Positions 4,649 to 47,150 of a DNA stretch of 64,000 nucleotides are shown here, in pieces. The DNA comes from Escherichia coli (GTDB taxonomy: Bacteria; Pseudomonadota; Gammaproteobacteria; Enterobacterales; Enterobacteriaceae), in NCBI RefSeq assembly GCF_003018255.1, contig NZ_CP027440.1. The stretch is one strand, 5' to 3'. Positions within the stretch are counted from its first letter, which is position 1. Each line of letters starts with the position of its first letter. Under the pieces are notes generated by a model. The model made no database searches. It had not been told where the DNA came from and saw only the letters and a list, made by a program, of their open reading frames with translations. Position numbers and translations under genes: made by a program.

Positions 4649-6076
4649 ATGTCGATCAAAACCAGTAATACAGATTTTAAGACACGCATCCGTCAGCAAA
4701 TTGAAGATCCGATCATGCGCAAAGCGGTGGCAAACGCGCAGCAGCGTATTGGGGCAAATCGGCAAAAAATGGTCGATGAATTGGGGCACTGGGAGGAGTG
4801 GCGCGATCGGGCCGCCCAGATACGTGATCATGTTCTGAGTAATCTCGACGCTTATCTGTACCAGCTCTCAGAAAAAGTGACGCAAAACGGCGGTCACGTC
4901 TATTTTGCAAAAACCAAAGAAGACGCTACCCGCTACATTTTACAGGTTGCCCAACGCAAAAATGCCCGGAAGGTGGTGAAATCTAAATCGATGGTGACCG
5001 AAGAGATTGGTGTCAATCATGTGTTGCAGGATGCTGGCATTCAGGTGATTGAAACCGATCTGGGTGAATACATTCTCCAGCTGGATCAAGATCCGCCCTC
5101 TCATGTTGTGGTCCCGGCAATTCATAAAGATCGCCATCAGATCCGTCGAGTGCTACACGAACGTCTGGGCTATGAGGGGCCGGAAACGCCTGAAGCGATG
5201 ACCTTATTCATTCGGCAAAAAATCCGCGAAGATTTCCTCAGTGCTGAAATAGGTATTACCGGCTGTAATTTCGCGGTGGCAGAGACCGGTTCGGTATGCC
5301 TGGTGACCAATGAAGGTAATGCGCGAATGTGTACCACGCTGCCTAAAACGCATATTGCAGTGATGGGAATGGAGCGTATTGCCCCCACGTTTGCCGAGGT
5401 AGATGTATTGATCACCATGCTGGCGCGCAGTGCCGTTGGTGCACGTTTGACGGGATACAACACCTGGTTGACAGGACCGCGCGAAGCGGGGCACGTTGAT
5501 GGTCCTGAAGAGTTTCATCTGGTTATTGTCGATAACGGGCGTTCTGAGGTGCTGGCCTCTGAATTTCGGGATGTGCTGCGCTGTATTCGTTGCGGGGCTT
5601 GTATGAATACTTGTCCGGCATATCGCCATATTGGCGGTCATGGATATGGCTCTATTTATCCAGGGCCAATTGGTGCGGTGATTTCCCCGTTACTTGGCGG
5701 CTATAAAGATTTTAAAGATTTACCCTACGCCTGCTCTTTATGCACCGCTTGTGACAGCGTGTGTCCGGTGCGTATTCCGCTGTCAAAACTGATTTTGCGT
5801 CATCGTCGGGTGATGGCTGAAAAAGGGATCACCGCAAAAGCAGAGCAACGGGCGATAAAAATGTTCGCTTATGCCAATAGTCATCCAGGATTGTGGAAAG
5901 TCGGGATGATGGCTGGTGCTCATGCGGCAAGCTGGTTTATCAATGGCGGCAAAACACCACTCAAATTTGGCGCGATTAGCGACTGGATGGAAGCACGCGA
6001 TCTTCCTGAAGCTGACGGAGAGAGTTTCCGTAGTTGGTTTAAGAAACATCAGGCGCAGGAGAATAAGAATGGATAA
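4649..6076 (+). CDS. ykgF: iron-sulfur protein with 4Fe-4S ferredoxin motifs, LutB-like subunit
   Basis: 475-aa ORF; CxxCxxCxxxCP motifs (CIRCGACMNTCP, CSLCTACDSVCP). Confidence 0.9.
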   Translation: MSIKTSNTDFKTRIRQQIEDPIMRKAVANAQQRIGANRQKMVDELGHWEEWRDRAAQIRDHVLSNLDAYLYQLSEKVTQNGGHVYFAKTKEDATRYILQVAQRKNARKVVKSKSMVTEEIGVNHVLQDAGIQVIETDLGEYILQLDQDPPSHVVVPAIHKDRHQIRRVLHERLGYEGPETPEAMTLFIRQKIREDFLSAEIGITGCNFAVAETGSVCLVTNEGNARMCTTLPKTHIAVMGMERIAPTFAEVDVLITMLARSAVGARLTGYNTWLTGPREAGHVDGPEEFHLVIVDNGRSEVLASEFRDVLRCIRCGACMNTCPAYRHIGGHGYGSIYPGPIGAVISPLLGGYKDFKDLPYACSLCTACDSVCPVRIPLSKLILRHRRVMAEKGITAKAEQRAIKMFAYANSHPGLWKVGMMAGAHAASWFINGGKTPLKFGAISDWMEARDLPEADGESFRSWFKKHQAQENKNG

Positions 6077-6764
6077 TCGGAGCGAATTTTTGAATAACGT
6101 TGCTCAGGCACTGGGTCGCCCGCTGCGACTTGAACCGCAAGCAGAAGATGCGCCGCTTAACAACTATGCTAACGAGCGGCTTACCCAACTTACCCAACAG
6201 CAGCGCTGTGACGCGTTTATCCAGTTTGCCAGCGATGTTATGTTGACGCGCTGTGAACTGACCAGCGAGGCGAAGGCGGCAGAAGCTGCAATACGTCTGT
6301 GTAAAGAGCTGGGAGATCAGTCGGTCGTGATTAGTGGTGACACGAGGCTGGAGGAATTGGGGATTAGCGAACGTTTGCAGCAGGAATGCAATGCCGTTGT
6401 TTGGGATCCGGCGAAAGGTATTGAGAACATATCACAAGCAGAGCAGGCTAAAGTGGGCGTCGTATATGCTGAATATGGTTTAACCGAATCGGGAGGCGTG
6501 GTTCTTTTTTCCGCCGCCGGGCGCGGGCGTTCATTGAGCCTGCTCCCGGAATCTTCTCTTTTTATCCTGCGTAAAAGCACAATCCTGCCGCGTGTAGCGC
6601 AACTCGCAGAAAAATTGCATCAGAAAGCGCAGGCCGGTGAACGAATGCCGTCATGTATTAACATCATCAGTGGTCCCAGTTCAACGGCGGACATTGAGCT
6701 TATCAAAGTCGTCGGGGTTCATGGTCCGGTGAAAGCGGTGTATCTGATTATTGAGGATTGCTGA
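6069..6764 (+). CDS. ykgG: LutC-like (DUF162) protein
   Basis: ORF 5916..6764; ATG at 6069 overlaps the ykgF stop by 8 nt (translational coupling), 231 aa. Confidence 0.8.
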   Translation: MDNRSEFLNNVAQALGRPLRLEPQAEDAPLNNYANERLTQLTQQQRCDAFIQFASDVMLTRCELTSEAKAAEAAIRLCKELGDQSVVISGDTRLEELGISERLQQECNAVVWDPAKGIENISQAEQAKVGVVYAEYGLTESGGVVLFSAAGRGRSLSLLPESSLFILRKSTILPRVAQLAEKLHQKAQAGERMPSCINIISGPSSTADIELIKVVGVHGPVKAVYLIIEDC

Positions 6765-6868
6765 GAGAGATATGAAGTCTGGACATAAACCTGAAGGCGG
6801 CACGAGGTTGTGAATTGCGTTAAGGACAACCTGACTTAACCCCGTTCCGTCATGGTTATGCTGCTCTT

Positions 6869-6909
6869 CTGTAAATATCCTGACATTAATAATGCCAGGA
6901 TATTTACAG
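6869..6909. terminator. perfect 14-bp-stem hairpin between convergent ykgG and ykgH (likely bidirectional terminator)
   Basis: CTGTAAATATCCTG - 13 nt loop - CAGGATATTTACAG read directly from the sequence. Confidence 0.5.
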
Positions 6910-7004
6910 TGAAAAAGACAGGAATCCATTCCTGAAGACGGGCTCCCTTCCCGGTCATTGTCACTATAGTTTTATACAGGCACTCTCTGTCAGAATGCTG
7001 TTTA

Positions 7005-7673
7005 TTACTGCCCAGAGTTTTGTGGGTATTCATCTACCATTTTTTTGACAAGGCAAAACATTACAGAAATCACAATGCTTAGAAAAAATCCCAGAGCCAG
7101 GCAAATGGCAGCAGGGTATTTATTTTTTATTTCTGGTGAGCTTATAGTGACACAGCCATCACCGTTTGGATACAGTGACCAGTTCCTGGTCAGGTATATC
7201 ATTTTTGTATAAAGCTCACTGTTAATTGCTGAAGGCGTTTGTATCTCATCGAGAACTTGCCTGCCATTATGGTATTCTGACGCATACCATTTGATGATAG
7301 ACGCCTGCACGCGAGATATTTCCGCTTCAGCAGTTGGTAAATCTCTCTTATCTCCTGACCATTCCAGCTTTATTTCTCTGTTCTTGACATCTGGGCTGGT
7401 TTGAAAAAATGTAGTAATTCGCTGAATAACATCTTCAGTCATTGTGGTCTGACAGGCAAAGTTATTATTGCTATCACAGCTAACAAGTATGCCTGGTGTT
7501 GTCTGGTTTATTTTTAGGCTGTAACTCACTTTTATATTATCTTTATTGATATACAGAAACAACAGCACCATTGCCATACAGATAGCTATAATAAAAAGGA
7601 TAACACGAATCTTTTTTTTCAGATAAAATAAAATCTCAATCAGATCGATATCCTGTTTGATTTGTTCACTCAT
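7005..7673 (-). CDS. ykgH: predicted membrane-anchored protein of unknown function
   Basis: 222-aa ORF with one N-terminal transmembrane segment (VILFIIAICMAMVLLFLYI) and a second near the C-terminus. Confidence 0.75.
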   Translation of the reverse strand: MSEQIKQDIDLIEILFYLKKKIRVILFIIAICMAMVLLFLYINKDNIKVSYSLKINQTTPGILVSCDSNNNFACQTTMTEDVIQRITTFFQTSPDVKNREIKLEWSGDKRDLPTAEAEISRVQASIIKWYASEYHNGRQVLDEIQTPSAINSELYTKMIYLTRNWSLYPNGDGCVTISSPEIKNKYPAAICLALGFFLSIVISVMFCLVKKMVDEYPQNSGQ

Positions 7674-7753
7674 AATATATTCAGAGAATAAAATCTGCCG
7701 CAGATAAATGAATTAATAGTCTGTATCAGGAATGTTCGGGTTAAATATCAGCA

Positions 7754-7816
7754 AATATCCAGCATCATGAATACTGGATATTTATAGCCTGCAGGCAGCA
7801 TACTGCTGCCTGCAGG
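7754..7816. terminator. two adjacent hairpins downstream of the autotransporter gene / upstream of ykgH
   Basis: AAATATCCAG..CTGGATATTT (7754-7784, 10-bp arms) followed by CCTGCAGGCAGCA-TAC-TGCTGCCTGCAGG (7788-7816, perfect 13-bp stem). Confidence 0.45.
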
Positions 7817-7854
7817 GGGTATAACAGTCGACAGGGGAACCGACTGCTTTATTC

Positions 7855-10179
7855 TTACCAGGTCACATTGATACCAACTACACCCTGTAGCGGATTCTCA
7901 ATGTCGTCACCTTTGGTGTAGTCAAGGCTTGCATATGCTCCCATGTTTTTGGTGATATCAGCCTGTACACCTGCACCCACGCGGAATGCTGCACCGTCAA
8001 TGCTGGCATTGACAGACTCATCACCCAGACGGACTTTGTTGCCATCAGAGAATTCGTTCAGTGCGGCTAGATTCAGATAAGGTTTAACGGTCGCGTTGCC
8101 CACAGCGAAGTCATAACCCACGCGCGTACCGGCCTCACCCAGCACAGAGTTATAGCTGTCAGAATGAACGTCCACGCCGTTGAGTTGATAATCCACACCT
8201 TCCAGAGTCAGAGCAGACAGTTTGGCATATGGCTGAATAAACAGGCCATTACCGTCTTTCCATGTGTAACCGCCTTTAACCATCGCACCAAAACCATTGG
8301 TGTTAAAGTCAGCTTTGATGGTACCGCCACCATTCATCAGGCGAACATCTGCCGTGTTGCTGTAGTGACCAAACTGTGCAGCAGTATCAATGAAGATACC
8401 GTTGTTATACTGGCGGCTCAGGTAAGCGTGGAAGCTGTAACCTTCAGTGTCACCTTTGCTCTGCATGGTACTCATGTCACCTTTCGCAGAAGACATCGCC
8501 ACACCGGCCAGCCAGCTACCATCTTCAGTTATGAAGCGGGTATCACCACCCAGCATTACACCATTTACATCCAGGTCATAGGATGCATTTCCCGCGGTGG
8601 TATGTTTCTGTTTACCGCCAAAGTACTGAATCCATACGCCGCCCTTGTCATTTTCGCTCAGACGGACAGCATCCTGACGGGCGGAGAGCGTGTCAGCCTG
8701 CAGATTAGCAACGTTAGCCGGAGCAGCTGCCATTGCCTGAATCACGGAGCTGGCGTTGGATGCTTTATGCGTGTTTTTTACGAAATAAAAGTTACCATCA
8801 GCTCCCTGTGTCAGGTCATATTGATACAGACCACCTTCCGTTGTGCCTGTGGCTTTTAGAGTGCTGTCTTTGCCGGTAGAAATAAATGCCGTTTGTTCAT
8901 TGATAAGATCCAATGAACCCGCACTGTAAACACGCAAGTCACCGCTCGCTTTTCCGCTGATATCCAGAGTGTTTTCAGAAGAGGCATCAACAATCAGAGT
9001 GCCGTTTTGAGAAACAAACGTGCCAGTATTGACTGTAGCCTTCGTGATATTTACCGTACTGTCTTTTACTGCCAGAGCATCAACAGTTGAGGAACCCGTA
9101 ACATTCCAGACAGACCCGTTTTGCAGAGATACGTTGGCATCTCCTGCCCCTGAAACTTTGCCTTTCCAGACTGAACTATCGGAAAGATTTATATCCAGAT
9201 TACTACCCGCTTTATCGCCGCTATTGAAGGTATAAGCATTACCTTCCCAGTAAGAGCGGGCAACGTTCATGTTTACATTTGTTGTGGTACCGACTGAATT
9301 CTCGCTTTCAGAAAGGGCCAGGATATCAGAGTAGATGGTTGAATCAGCAACAGACAAATTTAAATTTTGCGTTGCTGAACCTGCGCCTTGTGCCGAAGCA
9401 GAGGCATAAATTGTTTGTTTATTATTAGCCGCCCCAATTACTGAGCCATCCTTAATATTCAGGTTGACTGTATGAGTTCCCGTATTATTCCCGGCAATAA
9501 CTATTGCTTCAATCCGACCATTAATAATATTTGAGCCAGCAAGGGTAATGTTGTCGGTTGCATCACCGTTAAAACTATTCAATAAGCTACCCTTTTGAGC
9601 AAAAATTGCCGTGGAGGCGTTGCTGGAACTCTTATTACCTTGAGCATTTATGGTTGTGCCATTAAGCGTGACATTATTTCCCTGGGCCCCTTCCAGAGAT
9701 ATCCCTGTCGCACTACCTTTTTCATTTTTTGCAACGAAATTACCGCCATTAACAACAACATCGCCAGTTGAATCAATGACCATTGCAGTCCGGGCATAGG
9801 TGCCTTCACCTTGAGCTGTGATGGTGGAGCCTGTAGCATTAATCACAACATTTTTGTCACCGCTAACTTTTACACCTTTAACGAATTCTTTATCTGCCGT
9901 TGATTCAGCAGTAATATCATGACCACCAAAAGTAACATTAAGGTCTTTATCTTCCGCATTAATTGTTGCGGCTGTAATCTGTGTAGTACCACTAATAACA
10001 ACATCTTGTTCCAGAGTTGTCTTATCTTTATCCAATGTAACCGGTGTAGTTGATACCGCGTTATCAGCAGCGAATGCTGGTGCAGAAAGAGCCATAACAA
10101 TAGCTGTTGCTAATGCGCTGCGGTAAAATGCCTTACTGTTTTTCATGAAGAAATTCTCCATTCTGGTAACTAATTTCAA
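7855..10179 (-). CDS. AIDA-I-type (type Va) autotransporter adhesin, UpaB/UpaE-like
   Basis: 774-aa ORF; N-terminal signal peptide (ALATAIVMALSAPAFA), long Gly/Thr/Asn/Ser-rich repetitive passenger typical of beta-helix adhesins, C-terminal beta-barrel ending in aromatic residue (GINVTW). Start could be an internal Met (MKNSKAF). Confidence 0.8.
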   Translation of the reverse strand: MKLVTRMENFFMKNSKAFYRSALATAIVMALSAPAFAADNAVSTTPVTLDKDKTTLEQDVVISGTTQITAATINAEDKDLNVTFGGHDITAESTADKEFVKGVKVSGDKNVVINATGSTITAQGEGTYARTAMVIDSTGDVVVNGGNFVAKNEKGSATGISLEGAQGNNVTLNGTTINAQGNKSSSNASTAIFAQKGSLLNSFNGDATDNITLAGSNIINGRIEAIVIAGNNTGTHTVNLNIKDGSVIGAANNKQTIYASASAQGAGSATQNLNLSVADSTIYSDILALSESENSVGTTTNVNMNVARSYWEGNAYTFNSGDKAGSNLDINLSDSSVWKGKVSGAGDANVSLQNGSVWNVTGSSTVDALAVKDSTVNITKATVNTGTFVSQNGTLIVDASSENTLDISGKASGDLRVYSAGSLDLINEQTAFISTGKDSTLKATGTTEGGLYQYDLTQGADGNFYFVKNTHKASNASSVIQAMAAAPANVANLQADTLSARQDAVRLSENDKGGVWIQYFGGKQKHTTAGNASYDLDVNGVMLGGDTRFITEDGSWLAGVAMSSAKGDMSTMQSKGDTEGYSFHAYLSRQYNNGIFIDTAAQFGHYSNTADVRLMNGGGTIKADFNTNGFGAMVKGGYTWKDGNGLFIQPYAKLSALTLEGVDYQLNGVDVHSDSYNSVLGEAGTRVGYDFAVGNATVKPYLNLAALNEFSDGNKVRLGDESVNASIDGAAFRVGAGVQADITKNMGAYASLDYTKGDDIENPLQGVVGINVTW

Positions 10180-10187
10180 TTTCCCAC

Positions 10188-29428: not shown

Positions 29429-30811
29429 ATGAAAGAAAACAATAGCCGCCGTGAGTTTCTGAGCCAGAGCGGTAAGATGGTCACCGCCGCCGCGCTGTTT
29501 GGTACCTCTGTGCCGCTCGCCCATGCGGCAGTCTCTGGCACAATCCATTGCGACGCGAATAACACCATGAAAATCACTGACCCGCACTACTATCTCGACA
29601 ACGTGTTGCTGGAAACCGGTTTTGACTACGAAAATGGCGTGGCGGTGCAGACCCGCACGGCGCGCCAGACTGTGGAAATTCAGAACGGCAAAATTGTTGC
29701 CCTGCGCGAGAACAATCAGCATCCGGACGCCACGCTGCCGCACTATGACGCTGGCGGTAAGCTGATGCTGCCCACCACCCGCGACATGCATATTCATCTC
29801 GACAAAACCTTCTATGGCGGGCCGTGGCGCTCGCTCAATCGTCCGGCAGGCACCACCATCCAGGACATGATCAAACTCGAGCAGAAAATGCTGCCGGAGT
29901 TGCAACCGTACACTCAGGAAAGGGCGGAAAAACTGATTGATTTATTGCAGTCGAAAGGCACTACCATTGCCCGCAGCCACTGCAATATCGAACCGGTTTC
30001 CGGCCTGAAAAATCTGCAAAATTTGCAGGCGGTTCTGGCGCGACGTCAGGCGGGCTTCGAGTGTGAAATTGTCGCCTTCCCGCAGCACGGTTTGCTGCTG
30101 TCGAAATCAGAACCCTTAATGCGCGAAGCGATGCAGGCGGGGGCGCATTACGTCGGCGGGCTGGACCCGACCAGTGTTGATGGCGCGATGGAAAAATCCC
30201 TCGACACCATGTTCCAGATTGCGCTGGACTACGACAAAGGCGTCGATATTCACCTGCACGAAACCACTCCGGCAGGCGTGGCAGCCATCAATTATATGGT
30301 TGAAACGGTAGAGAAAACGCCACAGCTGAAGGGCAAGCTGACCATCAGCCACGCCTTCGCGCTGGCAACGCTCAACGAACAACAGGTAGATGAACTGGCG
30401 CACCGGATGGCGGCGCAGCAAATTTCTATCGCCTCGACGGTGCCGATTGGCACGCTACATATGCCGCTCAAACAGTTGCACGACAAAGGCGTAAAAGTGA
30501 TGACTGGCACCGACAGCGTTATCGACCACTGGTCGCCTTACGGCCTGGGCGACATGCTGGAAAAAGCCAATCTGTACGCGCAGCTCTATATTCGCCCTAA
30601 CGAACAGAATTTGTCCCGTTCGCTGTTTTTAGCCACTGGCGATGTATTGCCGCTGAATGAAAAAGGCGAGCGCGTGTGGCCCAAAGCGCAGGATGACGCC
30701 AGTTTTGTGCTGGTGGACGCCTCCTGTTCCGCCGAGGCGGTGGCGCGTATCTCGCCGAGAACGGCGACGTTCCATAAAGGGCAACTGGTGTGGGGGAGTG
30801 TGGCAGGTTGA
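29429..30811 (+). CDS. yahJ: amidohydrolase-superfamily deaminase with twin-arginine (Tat) signal peptide
   Basis: 460-aa ORF; N-terminus SRREFLSQSGKMVTAAALFGTSVPLAHA fits the Tat consensus; metal-binding HxH motif (HIHLD). Confidence 0.85.
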   Translation: MKENNSRREFLSQSGKMVTAAALFGTSVPLAHAAVSGTIHCDANNTMKITDPHYYLDNVLLETGFDYENGVAVQTRTARQTVEIQNGKIVALRENNQHPDATLPHYDAGGKLMLPTTRDMHIHLDKTFYGGPWRSLNRPAGTTIQDMIKLEQKMLPELQPYTQERAEKLIDLLQSKGTTIARSHCNIEPVSGLKNLQNLQAVLARRQAGFECEIVAFPQHGLLLSKSEPLMREAMQAGAHYVGGLDPTSVDGAMEKSLDTMFQIALDYDKGVDIHLHETTPAGVAAINYMVETVEKTPQLKGKLTISHAFALATLNEQQVDELAHRMAAQQISIASTVPIGTLHMPLKQLHDKGVKVMTGTDSVIDHWSPYGLGDMLEKANLYAQLYIRPNEQNLSRSLFLATGDVLPLNEKGERVWPKAQDDASFVLVDASCSAEAVARISPRTATFHKGQLVWGSVAG

Positions 30812-31109
30812 TACGCATTTGAAACGCCTGCAACGGTGAACAGTAATATATTTAAGCCCCAGGGAGTGGGGCGACAATGGTTTGCTAATGAATGATCCTG
30901 AACTTTATAATCTCCAGGCATAATTTCCAGGGGATTATTTGAGAGAAATACACAAAAGTGAGTTTTAACAAAGGTATTTATCAAGCCATAAATGTGACCT
31001 GCTTCGGATAAAAAAGATTAAGTATCGAAAAACCAATGATCCTCTTGCTGATGGTTATCAACAGTAATTAAGATGTGATTTGTTTTTCCGTAATCGCGAA
31101 AATATTGCC

Positions 31110-31520
31110 ATGACCATAAAAGAAAAAATCTCACAAAAATATCCCCATGCTTCCTTTTGTACTTTTGGCGATTCAGCAGCGTTGGCCGATCACCTCGCAA
31201 CGTTGATTGCGACTGGTGTTAAAACAGCTTCCTGTGGTTCGCTGGCGGGATGTATTGAAGACAACGCATTTCCGCTGATTGGTGAGTATAAGATTGTAGA
31301 AAATAGCCGTGGTGAGCCTGTCTGTGTTATCAGAGTGATTGGCCTGCATTTACTGCGCTTTTCTGATGTCTCCGCGGAGCTTGCCCGTAAGGAAGGTGAA
31401 GGTAACCTCAGTCTTGAATATTGGCGTAATGAACACCGTCGTTTTTTCCAGGCAGAAGGATGCTATTCACCCGAAATGGACGTTATCTTTGAAGAATATG
31501 CCCTTATTGACGTTGTGTAG
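31110..31520 (+). CDS. small PUA/ASCH-like domain protein (putative)
   Basis: ORF 31080..31520 (TTG); ATG at 31110 gives 136 aa; G-x-K-T motif (GVKTASCGS) reminiscent of ASCH domains; assignment tentative. Confidence 0.45.
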   Translation: MTIKEKISQKYPHASFCTFGDSAALADHLATLIATGVKTASCGSLAGCIEDNAFPLIGEYKIVENSRGEPVCVIRVIGLHLLRFSDVSAELARKEGEGNLSLEYWRNEHRRFFQAEGCYSPEMDVIFEEYALIDVV

Positions 31521-31770
31521 ATAACTATTTTTCTACGCGAAATAAGCTCTCAAACATAAAGTATCGCTAATTTTGTTTATTTTGCTATTTTTTACGTGAT
31601 GATTGTCACACTTATTGTTACTGCCCGTTTTGTCCATATTTATAACCAAATTTTTAATAGCTGCCTGAAATAGGGCTGTTTATTCTGCATAAAAATATTC
31701 GAAAATTCTTATTCTCTCCAGCGCGCTAATTTGGGCGAACACTTCCTGACTACCCTGCAATGAGGCTGAA

Positions 31771-32757
31771 ATGATGAATAAACGTTTTGTTATCAATATG
31801 GTGTCTTCGCTGTTATTAGGCGCTGCGCTAATTTCTGCGCCGCTCCAGGCAGCGGAAAAAGTCGTGGTGAATATCTCTAAAGTCGATGGTATGCCGTGGT
31901 TTAATCGCATGGGCGAAGGTGTGGTTGAGGCGGGTAAAGCCTTTGGTGTTAATGCGTCACAGGTGGGGCCTTCAAGTACTGATGCTCCGCAACAGGTTAA
32001 AATTATTGAGGATTTAATCGCCCGTAAGGTTAATGCAATTACAATTGTGCCAAACGATGCCAACGTGCTGGAACCGGTATTCAAAAAAGCGCGAGATGCC
32101 GGAATTGTGGTTCTGACCAACGAATCCCCCGGTCAGCCAAGTGCTAACTGGGATATCGAAATCATTGATAACGAAAAATTTGCCGCTGAATATGTTGAAC
32201 ATATGGCGAAACGCATGGGTGGCAAGGGCGGCTATGTGATTTACGTGGGTAGTTTGACCGTGCCGCAGCATAACTTATGGGCTGACTTGCTGGTGAAATA
32301 CCAGAAAGAGCATTACCCGGATATGCATGAAGTTACCCGCCGCATGCCGGTTGCCGAGAGTGTGGATGACTCACGTCGTACCACACTGGACCTGATGAAA
32401 ACCTATCCTGACTTGAAAGCGGTTGTCTCCTTTGGTTCAAACGGTCCGATTGGCGCGGGACGTGCAGTGAAAGAGAAACGGGCGAAAAATAAAGTCGCAG
32501 TCTATGGCATGATGATCCCTTCACAGGCGGCATCACTGATTAAAAGTGGTGATATCACCGAAGGGATTACTTACGATCCGGCCTCTGCAGGTTACGCACT
32601 CGCGGCCGTCGCCAGCACGTTGCTGAAGGGTGAAGAGATCAAACCTGGATTAGAAATGCAGAATCTCGGTAAGGCCGACGTAGATATGGATAAGCGAATT
32701 ATCCGTTTCCATAAGGTATTACTGGTCAACAAAGACAATATCGACTCACTTTATTAA
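31771..32757 (+). CDS. periplasmic sugar-binding protein of a CUT2 ABC transporter (LsrB/RbsB-like)
   Basis: 328-aa ORF with Sec signal peptide (MMNKRFVINMVSSLLLGAALISAPLQAAEK); type I periplasmic binding-protein fold; C-terminus LLVNKDNIDSLY resembles LsrB-type proteins. Confidence 0.8.
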   Translation: MMNKRFVINMVSSLLLGAALISAPLQAAEKVVVNISKVDGMPWFNRMGEGVVEAGKAFGVNASQVGPSSTDAPQQVKIIEDLIARKVNAITIVPNDANVLEPVFKKARDAGIVVLTNESPGQPSANWDIEIIDNEKFAAEYVEHMAKRMGGKGGYVIYVGSLTVPQHNLWADLLVKYQKEHYPDMHEVTRRMPVAESVDDSRRTTLDLMKTYPDLKAVVSFGSNGPIGAGRAVKEKRAKNKVAVYGMMIPSQAASLIKSGDITEGITYDPASAGYALAAVASTLLKGEEIKPGLEMQNLGKADVDMDKRIIRFHKVLLVNKDNIDSLY

Positions 32758-32767
32758 TCCATTTCTT

Positions 32768-32792
32768 CGGGGCGAAAGCCCCGATTCTTATT
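32768..32792 (+). terminator. GNRA-loop hairpin plus U-tract between binding-protein and ATPase genes (candidate intra-operon attenuator)
   Basis: CGGGGC-GAAA-GCCCCG followed by ATTCTTATT. Confidence 0.5.
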
Positions 32793-32805
32793 GCCAGGGG
32801 ATGCT

Positions 32806-34290
32806 ATGGAAACCTTCCTTTCCCTTCGTCATATCAACAAAACGTTTCATGCCACGCGAGCGCTGCGCGATGTTTCTCTCGACTTTATGTCGGGTGAGGT
32901 GCACTGCCTTGCCGGGCAAAACGGCTGTGGTAAATCGACGTTGATTAAAATTATGTCCGGTGTTTATCGCCCGGATGAGGGGGCGGAAATTACGCTTGGT
33001 GGGAAAAACTGGTCAAAGCTGACACCCGCCGCTTCGGTGGCGCAGGGGATTCAGGTGATTTATCAGGACCTCTCTTTATTTCCTAACCTGAGTGTCTGGG
33101 AGAATATCGCCGTGAATCACTATCACCACGGTCTGTTTGTTAACCGCCGTCGTCTGCGTGAGGTGGCGCAGGCGGCAATGACCAGTATTAACGTCACATT
33201 GCCACTGGATACGCTCGTTTCTGAGCTTTCAATTGCCCGCTGTCAGCTGGTGGCAATTTGCCGTGCACTGGCGCAGGACGCACGGTTGATCGTGATGGAT
33301 GAACCAACCGCTTCGCTGACCCATCAGGAAGTGCAAGGGTTATTACAGGTGGTGCATCAATTGCGGGAACGCGGGATCTGCGTGGTCTTCGTCAGTCATC
33401 GTCTGGAAGAAGTGATGGAAGTTTCCGACCGTATTTCAGTGCTGAAAGATGGTGAGCTGGTCGGGACCTTTCCGGCCGCAGAGATGACCACAAAACAACT
33501 CAGTTTTCTGATGACCGGCCAGGAGTTCGAATATCAGGTACGAGAGTTGTGGCAGGGAAAATCCAGCACCCCGGTGCTGGAGGTGCGTAATTTAAGTCGT
33601 CATGGGGAATATCAAAATATTAACTTGCGGGTGGAAGCGGGCGAAGTGGTGTCGATTGTTGGCCTGCTTGGTGCGGGGCGCACGGAATTATGTCTGAGTC
33701 TGTTTGGTATGACCCGACCGGATGCTGGTGAGATCCTCATCAACGGTCAGCCGGTTACACTGCATAGTAACCAGGACGCCATCCGCCACGGTATTGGTTA
33801 TGTTTCGGAAGATCGCATGTCGCGCGGTTTGGTGATGGCGCAATCTATTGAAGACAACATCATTAGCACTGTTTTTCACAAGGTAAAAGATCGCTTCGGC
33901 TTTCTGAGTGAAGCTAAAGTGCGTGACCTGGTGGACAGGCTAATCAAGGCATTGACCATCAAAGTCTCTGACCCACATCTCCCGGTGAATACGCTTTCCG
34001 GGGGTAACGCGCAGCGAGTATCGATCGCCAAATGGCTGGCGATTGGGCCACGACTGTTGATTCTCGATAGCCCGACTGTCGGTGTTGATATCGCCAACAA
34101 AGCAGGAATATACGGCATTATCAGCGATCTGGCGGCTCATGGCATTGCGGTATTGATGATCTGCGATGAAATTGAAGAAGCGTGGTATCAAAGCCACCGG
34201 ATTTTGGTAATGCAAAAAGGTCAGATCACCCATAGCTTCCTGCCTGACAGCAGTTCTCAGGCCAGGATTGCGGAGGTGGTAAATGGCTGA
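32806..34290 (+). CDS. sugar ABC transporter ATP-binding protein with duplicated ABC domains (RbsA-like)
   Basis: ORF 32791..34290; ATG at 32806; Walker A GQNGCGKST in the first half and degenerate GLLGAGRTE in the second half; LSGG signatures. Confidence 0.85.
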   Translation: METFLSLRHINKTFHATRALRDVSLDFMSGEVHCLAGQNGCGKSTLIKIMSGVYRPDEGAEITLGGKNWSKLTPAASVAQGIQVIYQDLSLFPNLSVWENIAVNHYHHGLFVNRRRLREVAQAAMTSINVTLPLDTLVSELSIARCQLVAICRALAQDARLIVMDEPTASLTHQEVQGLLQVVHQLRERGICVVFVSHRLEEVMEVSDRISVLKDGELVGTFPAAEMTTKQLSFLMTGQEFEYQVRELWQGKSSTPVLEVRNLSRHGEYQNINLRVEAGEVVSIVGLLGAGRTELCLSLFGMTRPDAGEILINGQPVTLHSNQDAIRHGIGYVSEDRMSRGLVMAQSIEDNIISTVFHKVKDRFGFLSEAKVRDLVDRLIKALTIKVSDPHLPVNTLSGGNAQRVSIAKWLAIGPRLLILDSPTVGVDIANKAGIYGIISDLAAHGIAVLMICDEIEEAWYQSHRILVMQKGQITHSFLPDSSSQARIAEVVNG

Positions 34291-35254
34291 ACTGAAAAAA
34301 CGCCATGAATTCTGGCTGGCATTACTGATTGTGGTGCTGTTTGTTGGCCTTGCCTGGCGCAGCGACGAGTTTCTGACATTCGGTAATTTGTACGATCTCG
34401 CCAATAACTATGCCATGTTGACTATTCTCGCCTGTGGTTTGTTTGTGGTGTTAATTTCCGGTGGGATTGATATTTCGTTTCCGGCAATGACCATCATTGC
34501 GCAATACGGCATGGTGCTGTTGCTGCAAAAAATTGGTGGCAACTTTGCTGTTGCGTTTGCCCTGGCGGGCGGCATCGGCATTTTACTTGGCTTAATTAAC
34601 GCCTTACTGGTTAATCGCCTACGGGTGCCTTCTATCATCATCACTATCTCGACGCTGAATATTTTCTATGGCCTGCTGTTATGGTTGAGTAAAGGTGTGT
34701 GGCTGTACGACTTTCCGCCGTGGTTTGAGCAGGGGGTTATGTTGTTCAAGTACACCGATGCTGATGGCTATGACTATGGCCTTGGTCTACCGCTGATCGC
34801 CATGATTACGGTGGTGCTGCTAACAGCGTTTATCATGAATTTCACCAGTGTAGGGCGCAAAATTTATGCCCTTGGCGGGAACCGTGAATCCGCCAGTCGC
34901 ATCGGCTTTAGTGTGCTGAAACTGCAACTTTTCGTCTATGGCTATATGGGATTGATGTCTGGTGCTGCGGGTGTAGTGCAGTCGTGGACGGTGATGACTG
35001 TCGCCCCCGATTCTCTTCTGGGTTATGAGCTGACAGTACTGGCTGCGGTGGTGCTTGGCGGCACTAGTTTGCTCGGCGGGCGCGGCACGTTAACCGGTAC
35101 TTTGCTCGGCGTGGTGTTGTTGGCAGTGATGCAAAACGGGCTAAATTTATTGGGAGTCTCGTCTTACTGGCAAACATTGATCACCGGCATCATCATCGTT
35201 GCCAGCATTAGCGCCACGGCGTGGAGTCAGCATCAGAACCGGAGTCTGCTATGA
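34283..35254 (+). CDS. ABC transporter permease (RbsC/LsrC-like)
   Basis: 323-aa polytopic membrane protein; start overlaps the ATPase stop by 8 nt. Confidence 0.8.
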   Translation: MAELKKRHEFWLALLIVVLFVGLAWRSDEFLTFGNLYDLANNYAMLTILACGLFVVLISGGIDISFPAMTIIAQYGMVLLLQKIGGNFAVAFALAGGIGILLGLINALLVNRLRVPSIIITISTLNIFYGLLLWLSKGVWLYDFPPWFEQGVMLFKYTDADGYDYGLGLPLIAMITVVLLTAFIMNFTSVGRKIYALGGNRESASRIGFSVLKLQLFVYGYMGLMSGAAGVVQSWTVMTVAPDSLLGYELTVLAAVVLGGTSLLGGRGTLTGTLLGVVLLAVMQNGLNLLGVSSYWQTLITGIIIVASISATAWSQHQNRSLL

Positions 35255-36207
35255 AAAAATCGTGGCGTAACAACGTTGAGTTTTACTTGATCGGCCTGCT
35301 GGTGCTAACTGTTGCAGCCTTCAGCATTACTATGCCGGAGATTTTCTGGTCGATAAGTAATTTCCAGTCCGTCGCTTCGCAAATGCCCGTGCTGGGCATT
35401 CTGGCGTTGGCTATGGCGGTGACCATGCTTTGCGGTGGCATTAACTTGTCAATTATAGCCACTGCTAACGCCTGTTCACTGGTGATGGCGTGGGTGGCGA
35501 CTCAGTATCCACCGGGTATTGCTACGGTTGTCGCTACGCTGCTGGCGGGCGCTGGCGCGGCGGTGATAATCGGTTTATGTAACGGCGTATTGATTGCTGG
35601 TATTCGAGTGTCGCCAATTCTTGCAACACTCGGGATGATGACGTTGCTCAAAGGGGTAAATATTCTGGTGACAGGCGGTAGCGCCATTGCCAATTATCCC
35701 TCATGGGTGCTGTGGTTGAATCATGCACAGTGGTTCGGTATTCCGCTACCGATGTGGTTGTTTACCGCAGTGGCGCTGGGGCTGTGGATATTGCTGGAGA
35801 AAACGCCGCTCGGTAAATCCATTTATCTGATTGGTTCTAACGAACGAGCAACACTTTACTCCGGTATTAACACTCGTCGGGTGCTGATATGGGTGTATGT
35901 CATTTCCGCCTTGCTTTGTGCGGTAGCGGCATTTTTGATGATGTCGAAACTCAACTCGGCTAAGGCCTCTTATGGCGAATCGTACTTGCTGGTGTCAATC
36001 CTCGCGGCAGTACTCGGCGGGGTTAATCCGGACGGCGGCAGCGGGCGGATAATTGGTATGGTGCTGGCGCTGTTTCTTCTGCAAATTATTGAAAGCGGCT
36101 TCAATATTCTCGGTATAAGCCCCTACCTGACGATGGCCTTATGGGGAACGTTGCTGCTCTGTTTCATTCAGGCTCGCGGCATGTTAGGGCTGGATCGGGT
36201 GGTTTAA
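35251..36207 (+). CDS. ABC transporter permease (RbsC/LsrD-like)
   Basis: ORF 35221..36207; ATG at 35251 overlaps the upstream stop (ATGA); 318 aa, polytopic. Confidence 0.8.
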   Translation: MKKSWRNNVEFYLIGLLVLTVAAFSITMPEIFWSISNFQSVASQMPVLGILALAMAVTMLCGGINLSIIATANACSLVMAWVATQYPPGIATVVATLLAGAGAAVIIGLCNGVLIAGIRVSPILATLGMMTLLKGVNILVTGGSAIANYPSWVLWLNHAQWFGIPLPMWLFTAVALGLWILLEKTPLGKSIYLIGSNERATLYSGINTRRVLIWVYVISALLCAVAAFLMMSKLNSAKASYGESYLLVSILAAVLGGVNPDGGSGRIIGMVLALFLLQIIESGFNILGISPYLTMALWGTLLLCFIQARGMLGLDRVV

Positions 36208-44989: not shown

Positions 44990-46876
44990 ATGTCTTTTAG
45001 CGAATTTTATCAGCGTTCGATTAACGAACCGGAGAAGTTCTGGGCCGAGCAGGCCCGGCGTATTGACTGGCAGACGCCCTTTACGCAAACGCTTGATCAC
45101 AGCAATCCGCCGTTTGCCCGTTGGTTTTGTGAAGGCCGAACCAACTTGTGTCACAACGCTATCGACCGCTGGCTGGAGAAACAGCCAGAGGCGCTGGCGC
45201 TGATTGCCGTCTCTTCGGAAACAGAAGAAGAGCGCACCTTTACCTTTCGTCAGCTGCATGACGAAGTGAACGCGGTGGCCTCAATGTTGCGTTCATTGGG
45301 TGTGCAGCGTGGCGATCGGGTGCTGGTGTATATGCCGATGATTGCCGAAGCACATATTACCCTGCTGGCTTGCGCGCGCATTGGCGCTATTCACTCGGTG
45401 GTGTTTGGGGGATTTGCCTCGCACAGCGTGGCGGCGCGAATTGATGATGCTAAACCGGTGCTGATTGTCTCGGCTGATGCCGGAGCGCGCGGTGGCAAAA
45501 TCATTCCCTATAAAAAATTGCTCGACGATGCGATAAGTCAGGCGCAGCATCAGCCGCGCCACGTTTTACTGGTGGATCGCGGACTGGCGAAAATGGCGCG
45601 CGTCAGCGGGCGGGATGTCGATTTCGCGTCGTTGCGCCATCAACACATCGGCGCGCGGGTGCCGGTGGCATGGCTGGAATCCAACGAAACCTCCTGCATT
45701 CTCTACACCTCCGGCACGACCGGCAAACCTAAAGGTGTGCAGCGTGATGTCGGCGGATATGCGGTGGCGCTGGCGACCTCGATGGACACCATTTTTGGCG
45801 GCAAAGCGGGCGGCGTGTTCTTTTGTGCTTCGGATATCGGCTGGGTGGTAGGGCATTCGTATATCGTTTACGCGCCGCTGCTGGCGGGGATGGCGACTAT
45901 CGTTTACGAAGGATTGCCGACCTGGCCGGACTGCGGCGTGTGGTGGAAAATTGTCGAGAAATATCAGGTTAGCCGCATGTTCTCAGCGCCGACCGCCATT
46001 CGCGTGCTGAAAAAATTCCCTACCGCTGAAATTCGCAAACACGATCTTTCGTCGCTGGAAGTGCTCTATCTGGCTGGAGAACCGCTGGACGAGCCGACCG
46101 CCAGTTGGGTGAGCAATACGCTGGATGTGCCGGTCATCGACAACTACTGGCAGACCGAATCCGGCTGGCCGATTATGGCGATTGCTCGCGGTCTGGATGA
46201 CAGACCGACGCGTCTGGGAAGCCCCGGCGTGCCGATGTATGGCTATAACGTGCAGTTGCTCAATGAAGTCACCGGCGAACCGTGTGGCGTCAATGAGAAA
46301 GGGATGCTGGTAGTGGAGGGGCCATTGCCGCCAGGCTGTATTCAAACCATCTGGGGCGACGACGACCGCTTTGTGAAGACGTACTGGTCGCTGTTTTCCC
46401 GTCCGGTGTACGCCACTTTTGACTGGGGCATCCGCGATGCTGACGGTTATCACTTTATTCTCGGGCGCACTGACGATGTGATTAACGTTGCCGGACATCG
46501 GCTGGGTACGCGTGAGATTGAAGAGAGTATCTCCAGTCATCCGGGCGTTGCCGAAGTGGCGGTGGTTGGGGTGAAAGATGCGCTGAAAGGGCAGGTGGCG
46601 GTGGCGTTTGTCATTCCGAAAGAGAGCGACAGTCTGGAAGACCGTGAGGTGGCGCACTTGCAAGAGAAGGCAATTATGGCGCTGGTAGACAGCCAGATTG
46701 GCAACTTTGGCCGCCCGGCGCACGTCTGGTTTGTCTCGCAATTGCCAAAAACGCGATCCGGAAAAATGCTGCGCCGCACGATCCAGGCGATTTGCGAAGG
46801 ACGCGATCCTGGAGATCTGACGACCATTGATGATCCGGCGTCGTTGGATCAGATCCGCCAGGCGATGGAAGAGTAG
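44990..46876 (+). CDS. prpE: propionyl-CoA synthetase
   Basis: 628 aa; acyl-CoA synthetase AMP-binding motif (YTSGTTGKPKG). Confidence 0.9.
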   Translation: MSFSEFYQRSINEPEKFWAEQARRIDWQTPFTQTLDHSNPPFARWFCEGRTNLCHNAIDRWLEKQPEALALIAVSSETEEERTFTFRQLHDEVNAVASMLRSLGVQRGDRVLVYMPMIAEAHITLLACARIGAIHSVVFGGFASHSVAARIDDAKPVLIVSADAGARGGKIIPYKKLLDDAISQAQHQPRHVLLVDRGLAKMARVSGRDVDFASLRHQHIGARVPVAWLESNETSCILYTSGTTGKPKGVQRDVGGYAVALATSMDTIFGGKAGGVFFCASDIGWVVGHSYIVYAPLLAGMATIVYEGLPTWPDCGVWWKIVEKYQVSRMFSAPTAIRVLKKFPTAEIRKHDLSSLEVLYLAGEPLDEPTASWVSNTLDVPVIDNYWQTESGWPIMAIARGLDDRPTRLGSPGVPMYGYNVQLLNEVTGEPCGVNEKGMLVVEGPLPPGCIQTIWGDDDRFVKTYWSLFSRPVYATFDWGIRDADGYHFILGRTDDVINVAGHRLGTREIEESISSHPGVAEVAVVGVKDALKGQVAVAFVIPKESDSLEDREVAHLQEKAIMALVDSQIGNFGRPAHVWFVSQLPKTRSGKMLRRTIQAICEGRDPGDLTTIDDPASLDQIRQAMEE

Positions 46877-47150
46877 GTCGGATAAGGCGCTCGCGCCGCA
46901 TCCGACACCGTGCGCAGATGCCTGATGCGACGCTGACGCGTCTTATCATGCCTACAGGCCTGAACCGTAGGTCGGATAAGGCGCTCGCGCCGCATCCGAC
47001 ACCGTGCGCAGATGCCTGATGCGACGCTGACGCGTCTTATCATGCCTACAGGCCTGAACCGTAGGTCGGATAAGGCGCTCGCGCCGCATCCGACACCATG
47101 CGCCGATGCCTGATGCGACGCTTACGCGTCTTATCATGCCTACCCACTGT
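46873..47150. repeat. tandem REP/BIME array, 3 units of 94 bp
   Basis: Unit starts at 46873, 46967, 47061 (GTAGGTCGGATAAGGCGCTCGCGCCGCATCCGACA...); yields three spurious minus-strand ORFs beginning MIRRVSVASGI. Confidence 0.9.

Follow-up and report, generated by a model that had tools for sequence, protein, structure and literature searches.

Locus organization and gene model

The window analyzed here is a stretch of 64,000 nucleotides of Escherichia coli DNA (contig NZ_CP027440.1 of assembly GCF_003018255.1). It carries a gene for a protein with an ASCH domain, and the genes at this E. coli locus are ordered yahD-E-fdrA(yahF)-yahG-yahI-yahJ, the ASCH gene, the binding protein, ATPase and two permeases of a sugar transporter, and yahK (Table 1). 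The transporter is of the CUT2 type and corresponds to aau (Z0415-9), the accessory L-arabinose uptake ABC transporter described from O-island 17 of enterohemorrhagic E. coli (EHEC) (Cottam et al. 2024, PMC11127945). The two agree in gene order and both occupy the yahJ-yahK locus, although the published Aau system comprises Z0415-9 only and does not include the ASCH gene (PMC11127945). The transporter block of the window is 99.9% identical to that of strain JNEC-KY177. GC content differs among the units of the locus, with 56% in yahJ, 45% in the ASCH gene and 51% in aau. The yahEFGIJ set encodes AllH/AllF/AllG-like proteins, a carbamate kinase and an amidohydrolase with a Tat-like N-terminus.

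The open reading frame of 136 codons that the preliminary description placed at this position exists as described, running from its ATG to the stop codon as a 411-bp coding sequence. An alternative in-frame TTG start at 31080 would yield a product of 146 amino acids. All 36 aligned homologues start no more than two residues from the ATG, and RefSeq annotates the identical 411-bp coding sequence as "ASCH domain-containing protein" in E. coli PCN033, O157:H7, UTI89 and others. The ATG is favored over the TTG because homologue starts and RefSeq coding sequences agree. The Shine-Dalgarno sequence ahead of the ATG is weak or absent. The N-terminus is hydrophilic with no evident signal peptide, and the protein is predicted to be cytoplasmic.

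The putative sigma-70 promoter upstream of the gene is a lead only, since promoter-like sites in the region are not more numerous than expected from shuffled sequence. A scan for promoters and terminators found no terminator-like site between the ASCH gene and aauA. The spacer between the two genes contains a match resembling an AraC half-site, and this pattern occurs at chance level (27 occurrences compared to 44 expected in shuffles). Rfam has no match in or near the ASCH reading frame.

Table 1. Features of the ASCH gene and its surroundings, in positions of the window
Feature	Position	Strand	Remarks
Candidate sigma-70 promoter	30882..30911	+	TTGCTA-18-TATAAT; 10 of 12 consensus matches; ~200 bp 5' of the ASCH start
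ASCH-domain protein gene	31110..31520	+	136 codons plus stop (31518-31520); EF3133/YhfF subfamily
ASCH octapeptide G36-V-K38-T-A-S41-C-G43	31215..31238	+	hhalign register against YqfB; fold match to 9kyf/9kyh
E95-G-E97-G-N99	31392..31406	+	subfamily signature EGEGD; E95 at YqfB Glu74 in the weak alignment
W105...H109	31422..31436	+	near-invariant in the subfamily; no YqfB catalytic counterpart
Deletion scar	31473..31542	+	last 16 ASCH codons plus 22 bp; 70 bp surviving in K-12-like E. coli
ASCH-aauA spacer	31521..31773	+	AT-rich, 34% GC; neighbor, outside the ASCH gene
AraC half-site-like match	31622-31638		within the spacer
CUT2-type sugar ABC transporter, aau (Z0415-9)	31774..36207	+	neighbor of the ASCH gene; four genes
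aau binding protein	31774-32757
aau ATPase	32806-34290
aau permease, first	34283-35254
aau permease, second	35251-36207

Domain, fold and subfamily

The protein is an ASCH protein with a PUA-like beta-barrel and is a member of the EF3133/YhfF subfamily, once known as DUF984. The preliminary description had arrived tentatively at an ASCH/PUA-like domain, and this call was correct and made for the right reason, as profile searches, solved homologues and the predicted fold agree. The Pfam profile for ASCH (PF04266) covers residues 27-133 and scores 77 bits (E 2.1e-21), well above the curated gathering cut-off of 21.2 bits. No NCBIfam family matches the protein. Among solved structures, the single sequence matches PDB 1t62 (E 1.7e-18) and 3s9x (E 1e-15). 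A profile built from 36 homologues matches the same two entries at E 2.6e-35 and E 2.4e-28, respectively, and nothing else at E <= 10. The AlphaFold2 model, built on the homologue alignment, reached a pLDDT of 95.7 and a pTM of 0.87. Foldseek places it closest to 3s9x and 1t62 (TM 0.85), and the top 16 matches in the PDB are all ASCH structures. The next ranks are taken by YqfB (9kyh/9kyf; E 4e-5 to 1e-4, target TM 0.79-0.81), followed by ZmASCH and PH0355.

The two closest structures represent EF3133 of Enterococcus faecalis (1t62) and an ASCH protein of Lactobacillus crispatus (3s9x). Both share the K-x-A-[ST]-C and EGEGD...W...H signature with the window protein. The three proteins differ in several respects, however. 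Identity is only 26-30%, the Firmicute proteins exceed the window protein by 20-30 residues, and they have Ser at position 43 and Asp at position 99, where the window protein has Gly and Asn. Both entries stem from structural genomics, and membership in the subfamily gives no function. Searches of the literature yielded no functional study of YhfF, COG4405 or EF3133, and nothing on yahJ, yahK and O157.

The subfamily is large. Its profile matches 3,135 representatives of clusters at 50% identity with E <= 1e-3, and the number falls to 1,586 when the limit is set at E <= 1e-10. The gene itself was already known as a member of a subfamily with solved structures and is annotated in thousands of genomes. 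The exact window protein is recorded on 64 public contigs under the name "ASCH domain-containing protein" of Escherichia coli. The O157 allele is found on at least 1000 contigs, with one source naming it "uncharacterized protein YhfF". The outcome for the gene is an annotation check, given that it was already annotated and that the neighboring transporter was already published as Aau. Ten longer family members are fused to unrelated partners, including HD, Rv2179c-like exonuclease, GATase, aminotransferase, PALP, GT2 and LPG-synthase TM domains. Such heterogeneous fusion partners therefore do not indicate any single class of substrate.

Conserved residues and comparison with YqfB

The G-x-K-T motif noticed earlier is real. 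It corresponds to G36-V-K38-T39 within TGVKTASCGS and opens the ASCH octapeptide. The octapeptide consensus G-x-K-x-x-[E/T/S]-x-R is retained at G36, K38 and S41, while the terminal Arg is replaced by Gly43. Conservation was assessed in 90 diverse representatives of the family that are 25-51% identical to the query. Residues K38, E95, G96, E97 and H109 are invariant in all 90. Position 41 is always Thr or Ser (T in 81/90, S in 9/90), and position 43, equivalent to Arg26 of YqfB, is most often Ser (59/90) or Gly (17/90). Trp is found at position 105 in 89 and Asp at position 99 in 86 of the representatives. The subfamily signature of K38, T/S41, E95-G-E97-G-D99, W105 and H109 is complete in the window protein except for N99.

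The nearest characterized structure is the N4-acetylcytidine (ac4C) amidohydrolase YqfB of E. coli (9kyf/9kyh, 1te7), which has the same ASCH beta-barrel. Foldseek aligns the two folds with an rmsd of 2.1-2.2 A over ~107 columns at 14% identity. For the alignment of residues, the YqfB sequence was confirmed against 1te7 and 9kyf beforehand. In the register given by hhalign, G36, K38, S41 and G43 would match YqfB G19, K21, T24 and R26 in the octapeptide G19-R-K21-T-I-T24-I-R26, and E95 would match E74. This alignment is weak, with a probability of 1.6%. The mapping of residues to YqfB is thus a weak one, based on a low-probability alignment with a register that is in keeping with both the motif and the match in fold. 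Read in this way, the equivalents of Lys21, Thr24 and Glu74 appear to be kept in the window protein, whereas Arg26 aligns to Gly43 and His70 to Leu91, so that neither residue is retained. The window protein is also ~33 residues longer than YqfB, and its subfamily has the additional invariant residues E97, D99, W105 and H109. Membership in a YqfB clade at the sequence level was rejected, given that the 36-homologue profile recovers no YqfB chain at E <= 10 and given the low hhalign probability. According to the structural model, the fold alone links the subfamily to YqfB.

Activity of YqfB is lost in the mutants K21A, T24A and R26A and falls 100-1000-fold in E74A; T24S performs about as well as the wild type (PMC6972931). 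A more distant likeness exists to ZmASCH, the ssRNA-specific ribonuclease of Zymomonas mobilis (5guq), and to the GKER-type proteins TthASCH, EOLA1 and TRIP4-ASCH. These share the superfamily fold (Foldseek E ~1e-3) and the Lys of the octapeptide with the window protein. They differ in having Glu where the window protein has Ser and in having the final Arg of the octapeptide, and the TM is only 0.5.

Loss and relaxed constraint within E. coli

The ASCH gene sits between yahJ and aau throughout the history of the Escherichia locus. It is absent from ~59% of complete E. coli genomes and was deleted with a 70-bp scar in ~52%. The part specific to the ASCH gene (31080-31472) was found in 2,215 of 5,426 complete E. 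coli genomes, with at least 80% coverage in 2,213. A further ~2,800 genomes, including K-12-like strains, keep only the scar at 31473-31542 and the sequence from 36136 onwards. The latter corresponds to the final ~24 codons of the gene for the second permease and is annotated as a partial pseudogene in RefSeq. The deletion in K-12-like strains begins after position 30872, just 5' of the candidate promoter. The two deletions at the locus span ~30873-31472 and ~31543-36135.

Purifying selection on the ASCH gene in E. coli is clearly weaker than on its neighbors. Among the seven alleles compared, the ASCH gene has 8 synonymous and 11 nonsynonymous differences with a mean pN/pS of 0.43. The mean pN/pS is 0.03 both for the binding protein (23 synonymous, 2 nonsynonymous) and for the 3' 1.2 kb of yahJ (112 synonymous, 10 nonsynonymous). 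The contrast is significant in Fisher's exact tests for the ASCH gene against the binding protein (p = 6e-4) and against yahJ (p = 2e-6). Relaxed constraint fits a dispensable function and frequent gene loss. The window allele has Asn instead of Asp at position 99 of the near-invariant EGEGD motif. The same replacement is found in JNEC-KY177, while other E. coli alleles have Asp, and the query alone carries Asn among the 90 representatives. The substitution F130Y replaces a Phe shared by 88 of the 90.

The E. coli gene might accordingly be read as a decaying, dispensable remnant on the way to pseudogenization, with the D99N allele possibly impaired. The elevated pN/pS, the substitutions at the two otherwise conserved sites, the deletion in about half of the complete genomes and the poor Shine-Dalgarno sequence would all be consistent with decay. 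On the other hand, the reading frame is full-length in ~2213 genomes, in all seven alleles read and in the cryptic-clade Escherichia sp. E2593. All invariant residues of catalytic type are retained, and pN/pS is still below 1. We regard ongoing decay as the less likely interpretation, though one to be taken seriously.

Putative function

We suggest that the protein is a YqfB-like hydrolase of the EF3133/YhfF subfamily that is independent of Aau. This explanation as a whole accounts best for the observations, with a probability of roughly 60%. The parts differ in strength. That the protein is a YhfF-type ASCH protein and that it is independent of Aau is, taken together, highly probable. The amidohydrolase mechanism is proposed from the fold and the conserved residues, and we place it somewhat below even odds. 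The enzyme would act on its own in the cytoplasm, with its barrel cleft holding a nucleobase, a nucleoside or an RNA nucleotide that carries a modification. From this ligand it might then cleave an exocyclic N-acyl (amide-type) group by hydrolysis, much as N4-acetylcytidine is deacetylated by YqfB. With K38, S41 and E95 standing at the positions of YqfB Lys21, Thr24 and Glu74, the protein would have a YqfB-like Lys/Ser-Thr/Glu center. Because Arg26 is missing and the subfamily has its own invariant E97, D99, W105 and H109, the substrate or the stabilization of the transition state probably differs from YqfB.

The protein could instead be a second ac4C deacetylase in E. coli, acting on tRNA or on the nucleoside and redundant with YqfB. 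YqfB is the closest characterized fold and the Lys, Ser and Glu equivalents are kept. In a 2026 preprint, all 19 ASCH proteins tested strip ac4C from tRNA in vitro. However, the 19 proteins exclude bacterial sequences with a substituted terminal position of the octapeptide, and the preprint reports such bacterial variants to be common. The window protein lacks the equivalents of both Arg26, which is essential in YqfB, and His70. The absence of the gene from more than half of the genomes and its relaxed constraint speak against an indispensable role. The same preprint reports that deletion of yqfB in K-12 leaves tRNA ac4C unchanged. K-12 already lacks the ASCH gene, so redundancy between the two is not needed to explain this result. 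Overall, a redundant deacetylase seems rather unlikely.

EF3133/YhfF-type proteins, the window protein included, might complete a Lys-Ser/Thr-Glu center with Glu97, Asp99, Trp105 and His109 in place of Arg26 and hydrolyze a substrate other than ac4C. This substrate could be a small-molecule amide, or a nucleobase or nucleoside with a different N-acyl group or another modification. For Escherichia, a role alongside the neighboring yahEFGIJ genes in breaking down a nitrogen heterocycle is conceivable. In this specific form the proposal is speculative and distinctly unlikely to be correct. The large EF3133/YhfF branch, with two solved structures and a YqfB-like Lys/Ser-Thr/Glu center, makes an easy target for groups that assay ASCH proteins as ac4C erasers.

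The original prediction for ASCH domains was RNA binding, and the PUA-like EVE, YTH and SRA domains are readers. The protein might thus only bind (modified) RNA or DNA without catalysis. The invariant polar cluster of K38, T/S41, E95, E97 and H109 is more typical of a catalytic site, though, and the ASCH proteins examined biochemically so far are all hydrolases. We therefore regard a purely binding role as very unlikely.

A role in conflicts with phages, as a defense or anti-defense accessory acting on hypermodified cytosines, is highly improbable. The ASCH-fold protein BapA, a hydrolase that deglucosylates glucosyl-5hmC DNA, provides a precedent for action on modified cytosine in DNA, the distribution of the gene is patchy and island-like, and a homologue of E. 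albertii (50% identical) is carried by a P2-like prophage, flanked by ogr/delta and gpD, but neither PADLOC nor PHROG matches the window protein or the prophage homologue, and the neighbors in 80 other species are ordinary metabolic and regulatory genes. Only 12 of 50,697 "phage" records match, mostly mislabeled chromosomal fragments, and on these matches a phage gene family was rejected.

Relation to the aau transporter

The preliminary description saw the gene as heading a sugar importer, an association it called unexpected. The arrangement holds, as a CUT2-type ABC transporter does begin 253 bp downstream of the ASCH stop on the same strand. The functional association it implied is not supported. 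Within E. coli, the two units are present and absent together in a near-perfect manner. The transporter (31771-36135) was found in 2,220 of the 5,426 complete genomes, with at least 80% coverage in 2,212, close to the counts for the ASCH gene. This pattern arose because deletions removed both units in K-12-like lineages, as the scars document. Co-occurrence, which the preliminary description proposed as a check, is seen within E. coli only. In 80 loci from representative genomes of other species, the binding protein is never found within 6 kb of the ASCH gene (0/80), and neither is a homologue of YahJ or YahI (0/80). A distant sugar ABC ATPase (35% identical) lies near the ASCH gene in only three of the 80 loci. 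The nearest homologues are from Yersinia canariae (64%), Pseudenterobacter timonensis (63%) and Erwinia aphidicola (51%), in unrelated contexts. Each neighboring family reaches at most 11 of the 80 loci, and those that recur are LysR, SDR, Zn-ADH, ThiF-like, IclR/AceK, DsbA-like and LysE proteins. These recurrent families follow synteny at the genus level across the 80 species, and neighbors were rejected as functional partners.

The reciprocal comparison gives the same picture. Cassettes of aau in Atlantibacter, Providencia, Yersinia mollaretii and Mannheimia all lack the ASCH gene (4/4). The binding protein of these foreign four-gene cassettes is 75-79% identical, and nucleotide homology to the window extends only from ~31852 to ~36148, beginning inside the binding-protein gene. 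In Escherichia sp. E2593, the order is yahJ-ASCH-yahK, with the ASCH gene intact, aau deleted and a K-12-like permease remnant left behind. The ASCH gene therefore outlasted the loss of the transporter. The link between the ASCH gene and aau is positional and an accident of locus history, and Aau does not include the ASCH gene as a conserved component.

Expression data for aau could be read as an indication of a shared operon. The transporter is induced by L-arabinose via AraC, as observed with a reporter from ~300 bp upstream of Z0415, and the bacteria require it to persist in competition in the gut of streptomycin-treated mice (PMC11127945). RNA-seq with arabinose showed Z0414, annotated as "hypothetical protein" and presumed to be the ASCH gene, to be 3.7-fold up, with Z0415 and Z0417 26.5-fold and 43-fold up, respectively (PMC11127945). 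Z0414 is the locus tag immediately before Z0415. As the first gene of an operon, the ASCH gene might encode an Aau accessory that processes an imported arabinose-containing or modified-nucleoside substrate, or that regulates the system. Its shared strand, its short distance to the transporter, the joint presence and absence in E. coli and the induction of Z0414 would fit such a role. Some read-through co-transcription of the ASCH gene and aauA may occur because no terminator was found between them. However, the reporter stretch maps to ~31470-31770 of the window, which is the 253-bp spacer plus the last ~50 bp of the ASCH reading frame, so the AraC-dependent region lies mostly beyond the ASCH stop. 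The induction of Z0414 is ~10-fold weaker than that of aau and resembles that of many catabolite-sensitive genes in the same RNA-seq data, such as malK, xylF and fbp. The difference in GC content, the separation of the two units in other species and in E2593, and the explanation of co-absence by deletion scars also argue against an accessory of Aau, which we consider extremely unlikely. The relaxed constraint on the ASCH gene compared to its neighbors means that a contribution to the fitness phenotype of Aau should not be assumed.

The scars left in the ASCH gene and in the last permease show that O-island 17 is absent from K-12 by deletion, and its absence there does not speak for an insertion in EHEC. 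The deletion scars thus bear on the account of aau as a horizontal acquisition.

Deletion of the ASCH-aau segment in K-12-like genomes

The absence from K-12 of 'O-island 17', which comprises the L-arabinose ABC transporter cassette aau, is a deletion rather than an insertion in EHEC, because remnants of both the ASCH gene and the last permease gene persist. K-12-like E. coli genomes lack two stretches of the window, and their yahJ-yahK interval retains a 70-bp leftover of the ASCH 3' end as well as about 72 bp of the last aau permease gene. The scar is present in about 2,800 of 5,426 complete genomes. The cryptic-clade strain Escherichia sp. E2593 has the gene order yahJ-ASCH-yahK, with the aau cassette deleted, the same downstream junction as K-12 and an intact ASCH gene (88% amino acid identity). 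The E2593 locus looks like an intermediate state linking the complete locus with the scar of K-12.

Table. Coordinates of the features (window positions unless another sequence is named).
Feature	Sequence	Position	Strand
Segments missing from K-12-like genomes	window	30873-31472; 31543-36135	
Scar region with both leftovers	L002, K-12-like E. coli	2977-3133	
yahJ-ASCH-yahK	L097, Escherichia sp. E2593	7001-9738	
yahJ 3' part	window	29582-30811	
ASCH and aau binding protein	window	31110-32757	
ASCH codon 99	window	31404-31406	
ABC cassette	L014, Providencia stuartii	13531-17935	
ABC cassette	L016, Mannheimia	7954-15026	
Prophage region with ASCH homologue	L098, E. albertii	5526-7626	
Plasmid ASCH copy	NZ_AP023209.1	16253-16660	
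ASCH between iclR and aceK	AFYI01000007.1, Salmonella	7306-7707	
iclR-ASCH-aceK	AGRM01000005.1, Salmonella		
iclR-ASCH-aceK	L041, L047, L074, L077, L085, L095, L096		
naRNA4-scoring cluster	window	28207-28369	-
naRNA4-scoring cluster	window	46876-47140	+
YahJ N-terminus	window	29429-29530	

Diversity and residue 99

Among seven E. coli strains, synonymous diversity shifts abruptly at the yahJ/ASCH boundary, from about 0.15 in the 3' part of yahJ to only 0.03-0.04 across ASCH and the aau binding protein gene. A recombination breakpoint could account for the shift, as could recent spreading of the segment that carries ASCH and aau. In the window ASCH gene, codon 99 specifies Asn where the EGEGD motif has a near-invariant Asp, present in 86 of the 90 representatives of the family. 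The Asn99 allele, shared with strain JNEC-KY177 and found on 64 public contigs, may be weakened.

Related cassettes and ASCH homologues

Orthologous four-gene ABC cassettes occur in Providencia stuartii, adjoining araC, araB-like and araA genes with codB-like and codA-like genes upstream, and in Mannheimia, adjoining an AraC-type regulator and an FGGY kinase gene. The neighbours in both genera independently fit the published L-arabinose (pentose) specificity.

A YhfF-type ASCH homologue of 142 aa in Escherichia albertii, 50% identical to the window protein, lies within a P2-like prophage, where it is flanked by an Ogr/Delta-type gene and gpD and adjoins sheath, tube and tape-measure genes, and looks like prophage cargo. 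A further ASCH copy (94.9% amino acid identity) resides on a 68.5-kb E. coli plasmid, and DNA queries with ASCH and aau also matched two plasmid-borne places. The plasmid copy may represent a chromosomal segment captured by the plasmid. Orthologues about 46-51% identical are located between iclR and aceK in Salmonella, Klebsiella, Raoultella, Pluralibacter and some Enterobacter, a position conserved at the genus level that differs from the yahJ-yahK site of Escherichia.

Other features of the window

YahJ, the amidohydrolase of the yahEFGIJ cluster, may be periplasmic, as its N-terminus (MKENNSRREFLSQSG...AHA) resembles a twin-arginine (Tat) signal peptide. Two groups of REP/BIME elements score against the Rfam family naRNA4 (RF02564). 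One comprises two copies in the yahG-yahI gap, where the K-12 annotation has 'yahH', and the other three tandem copies 3' of a 628-aa ORF that ends at 46876.
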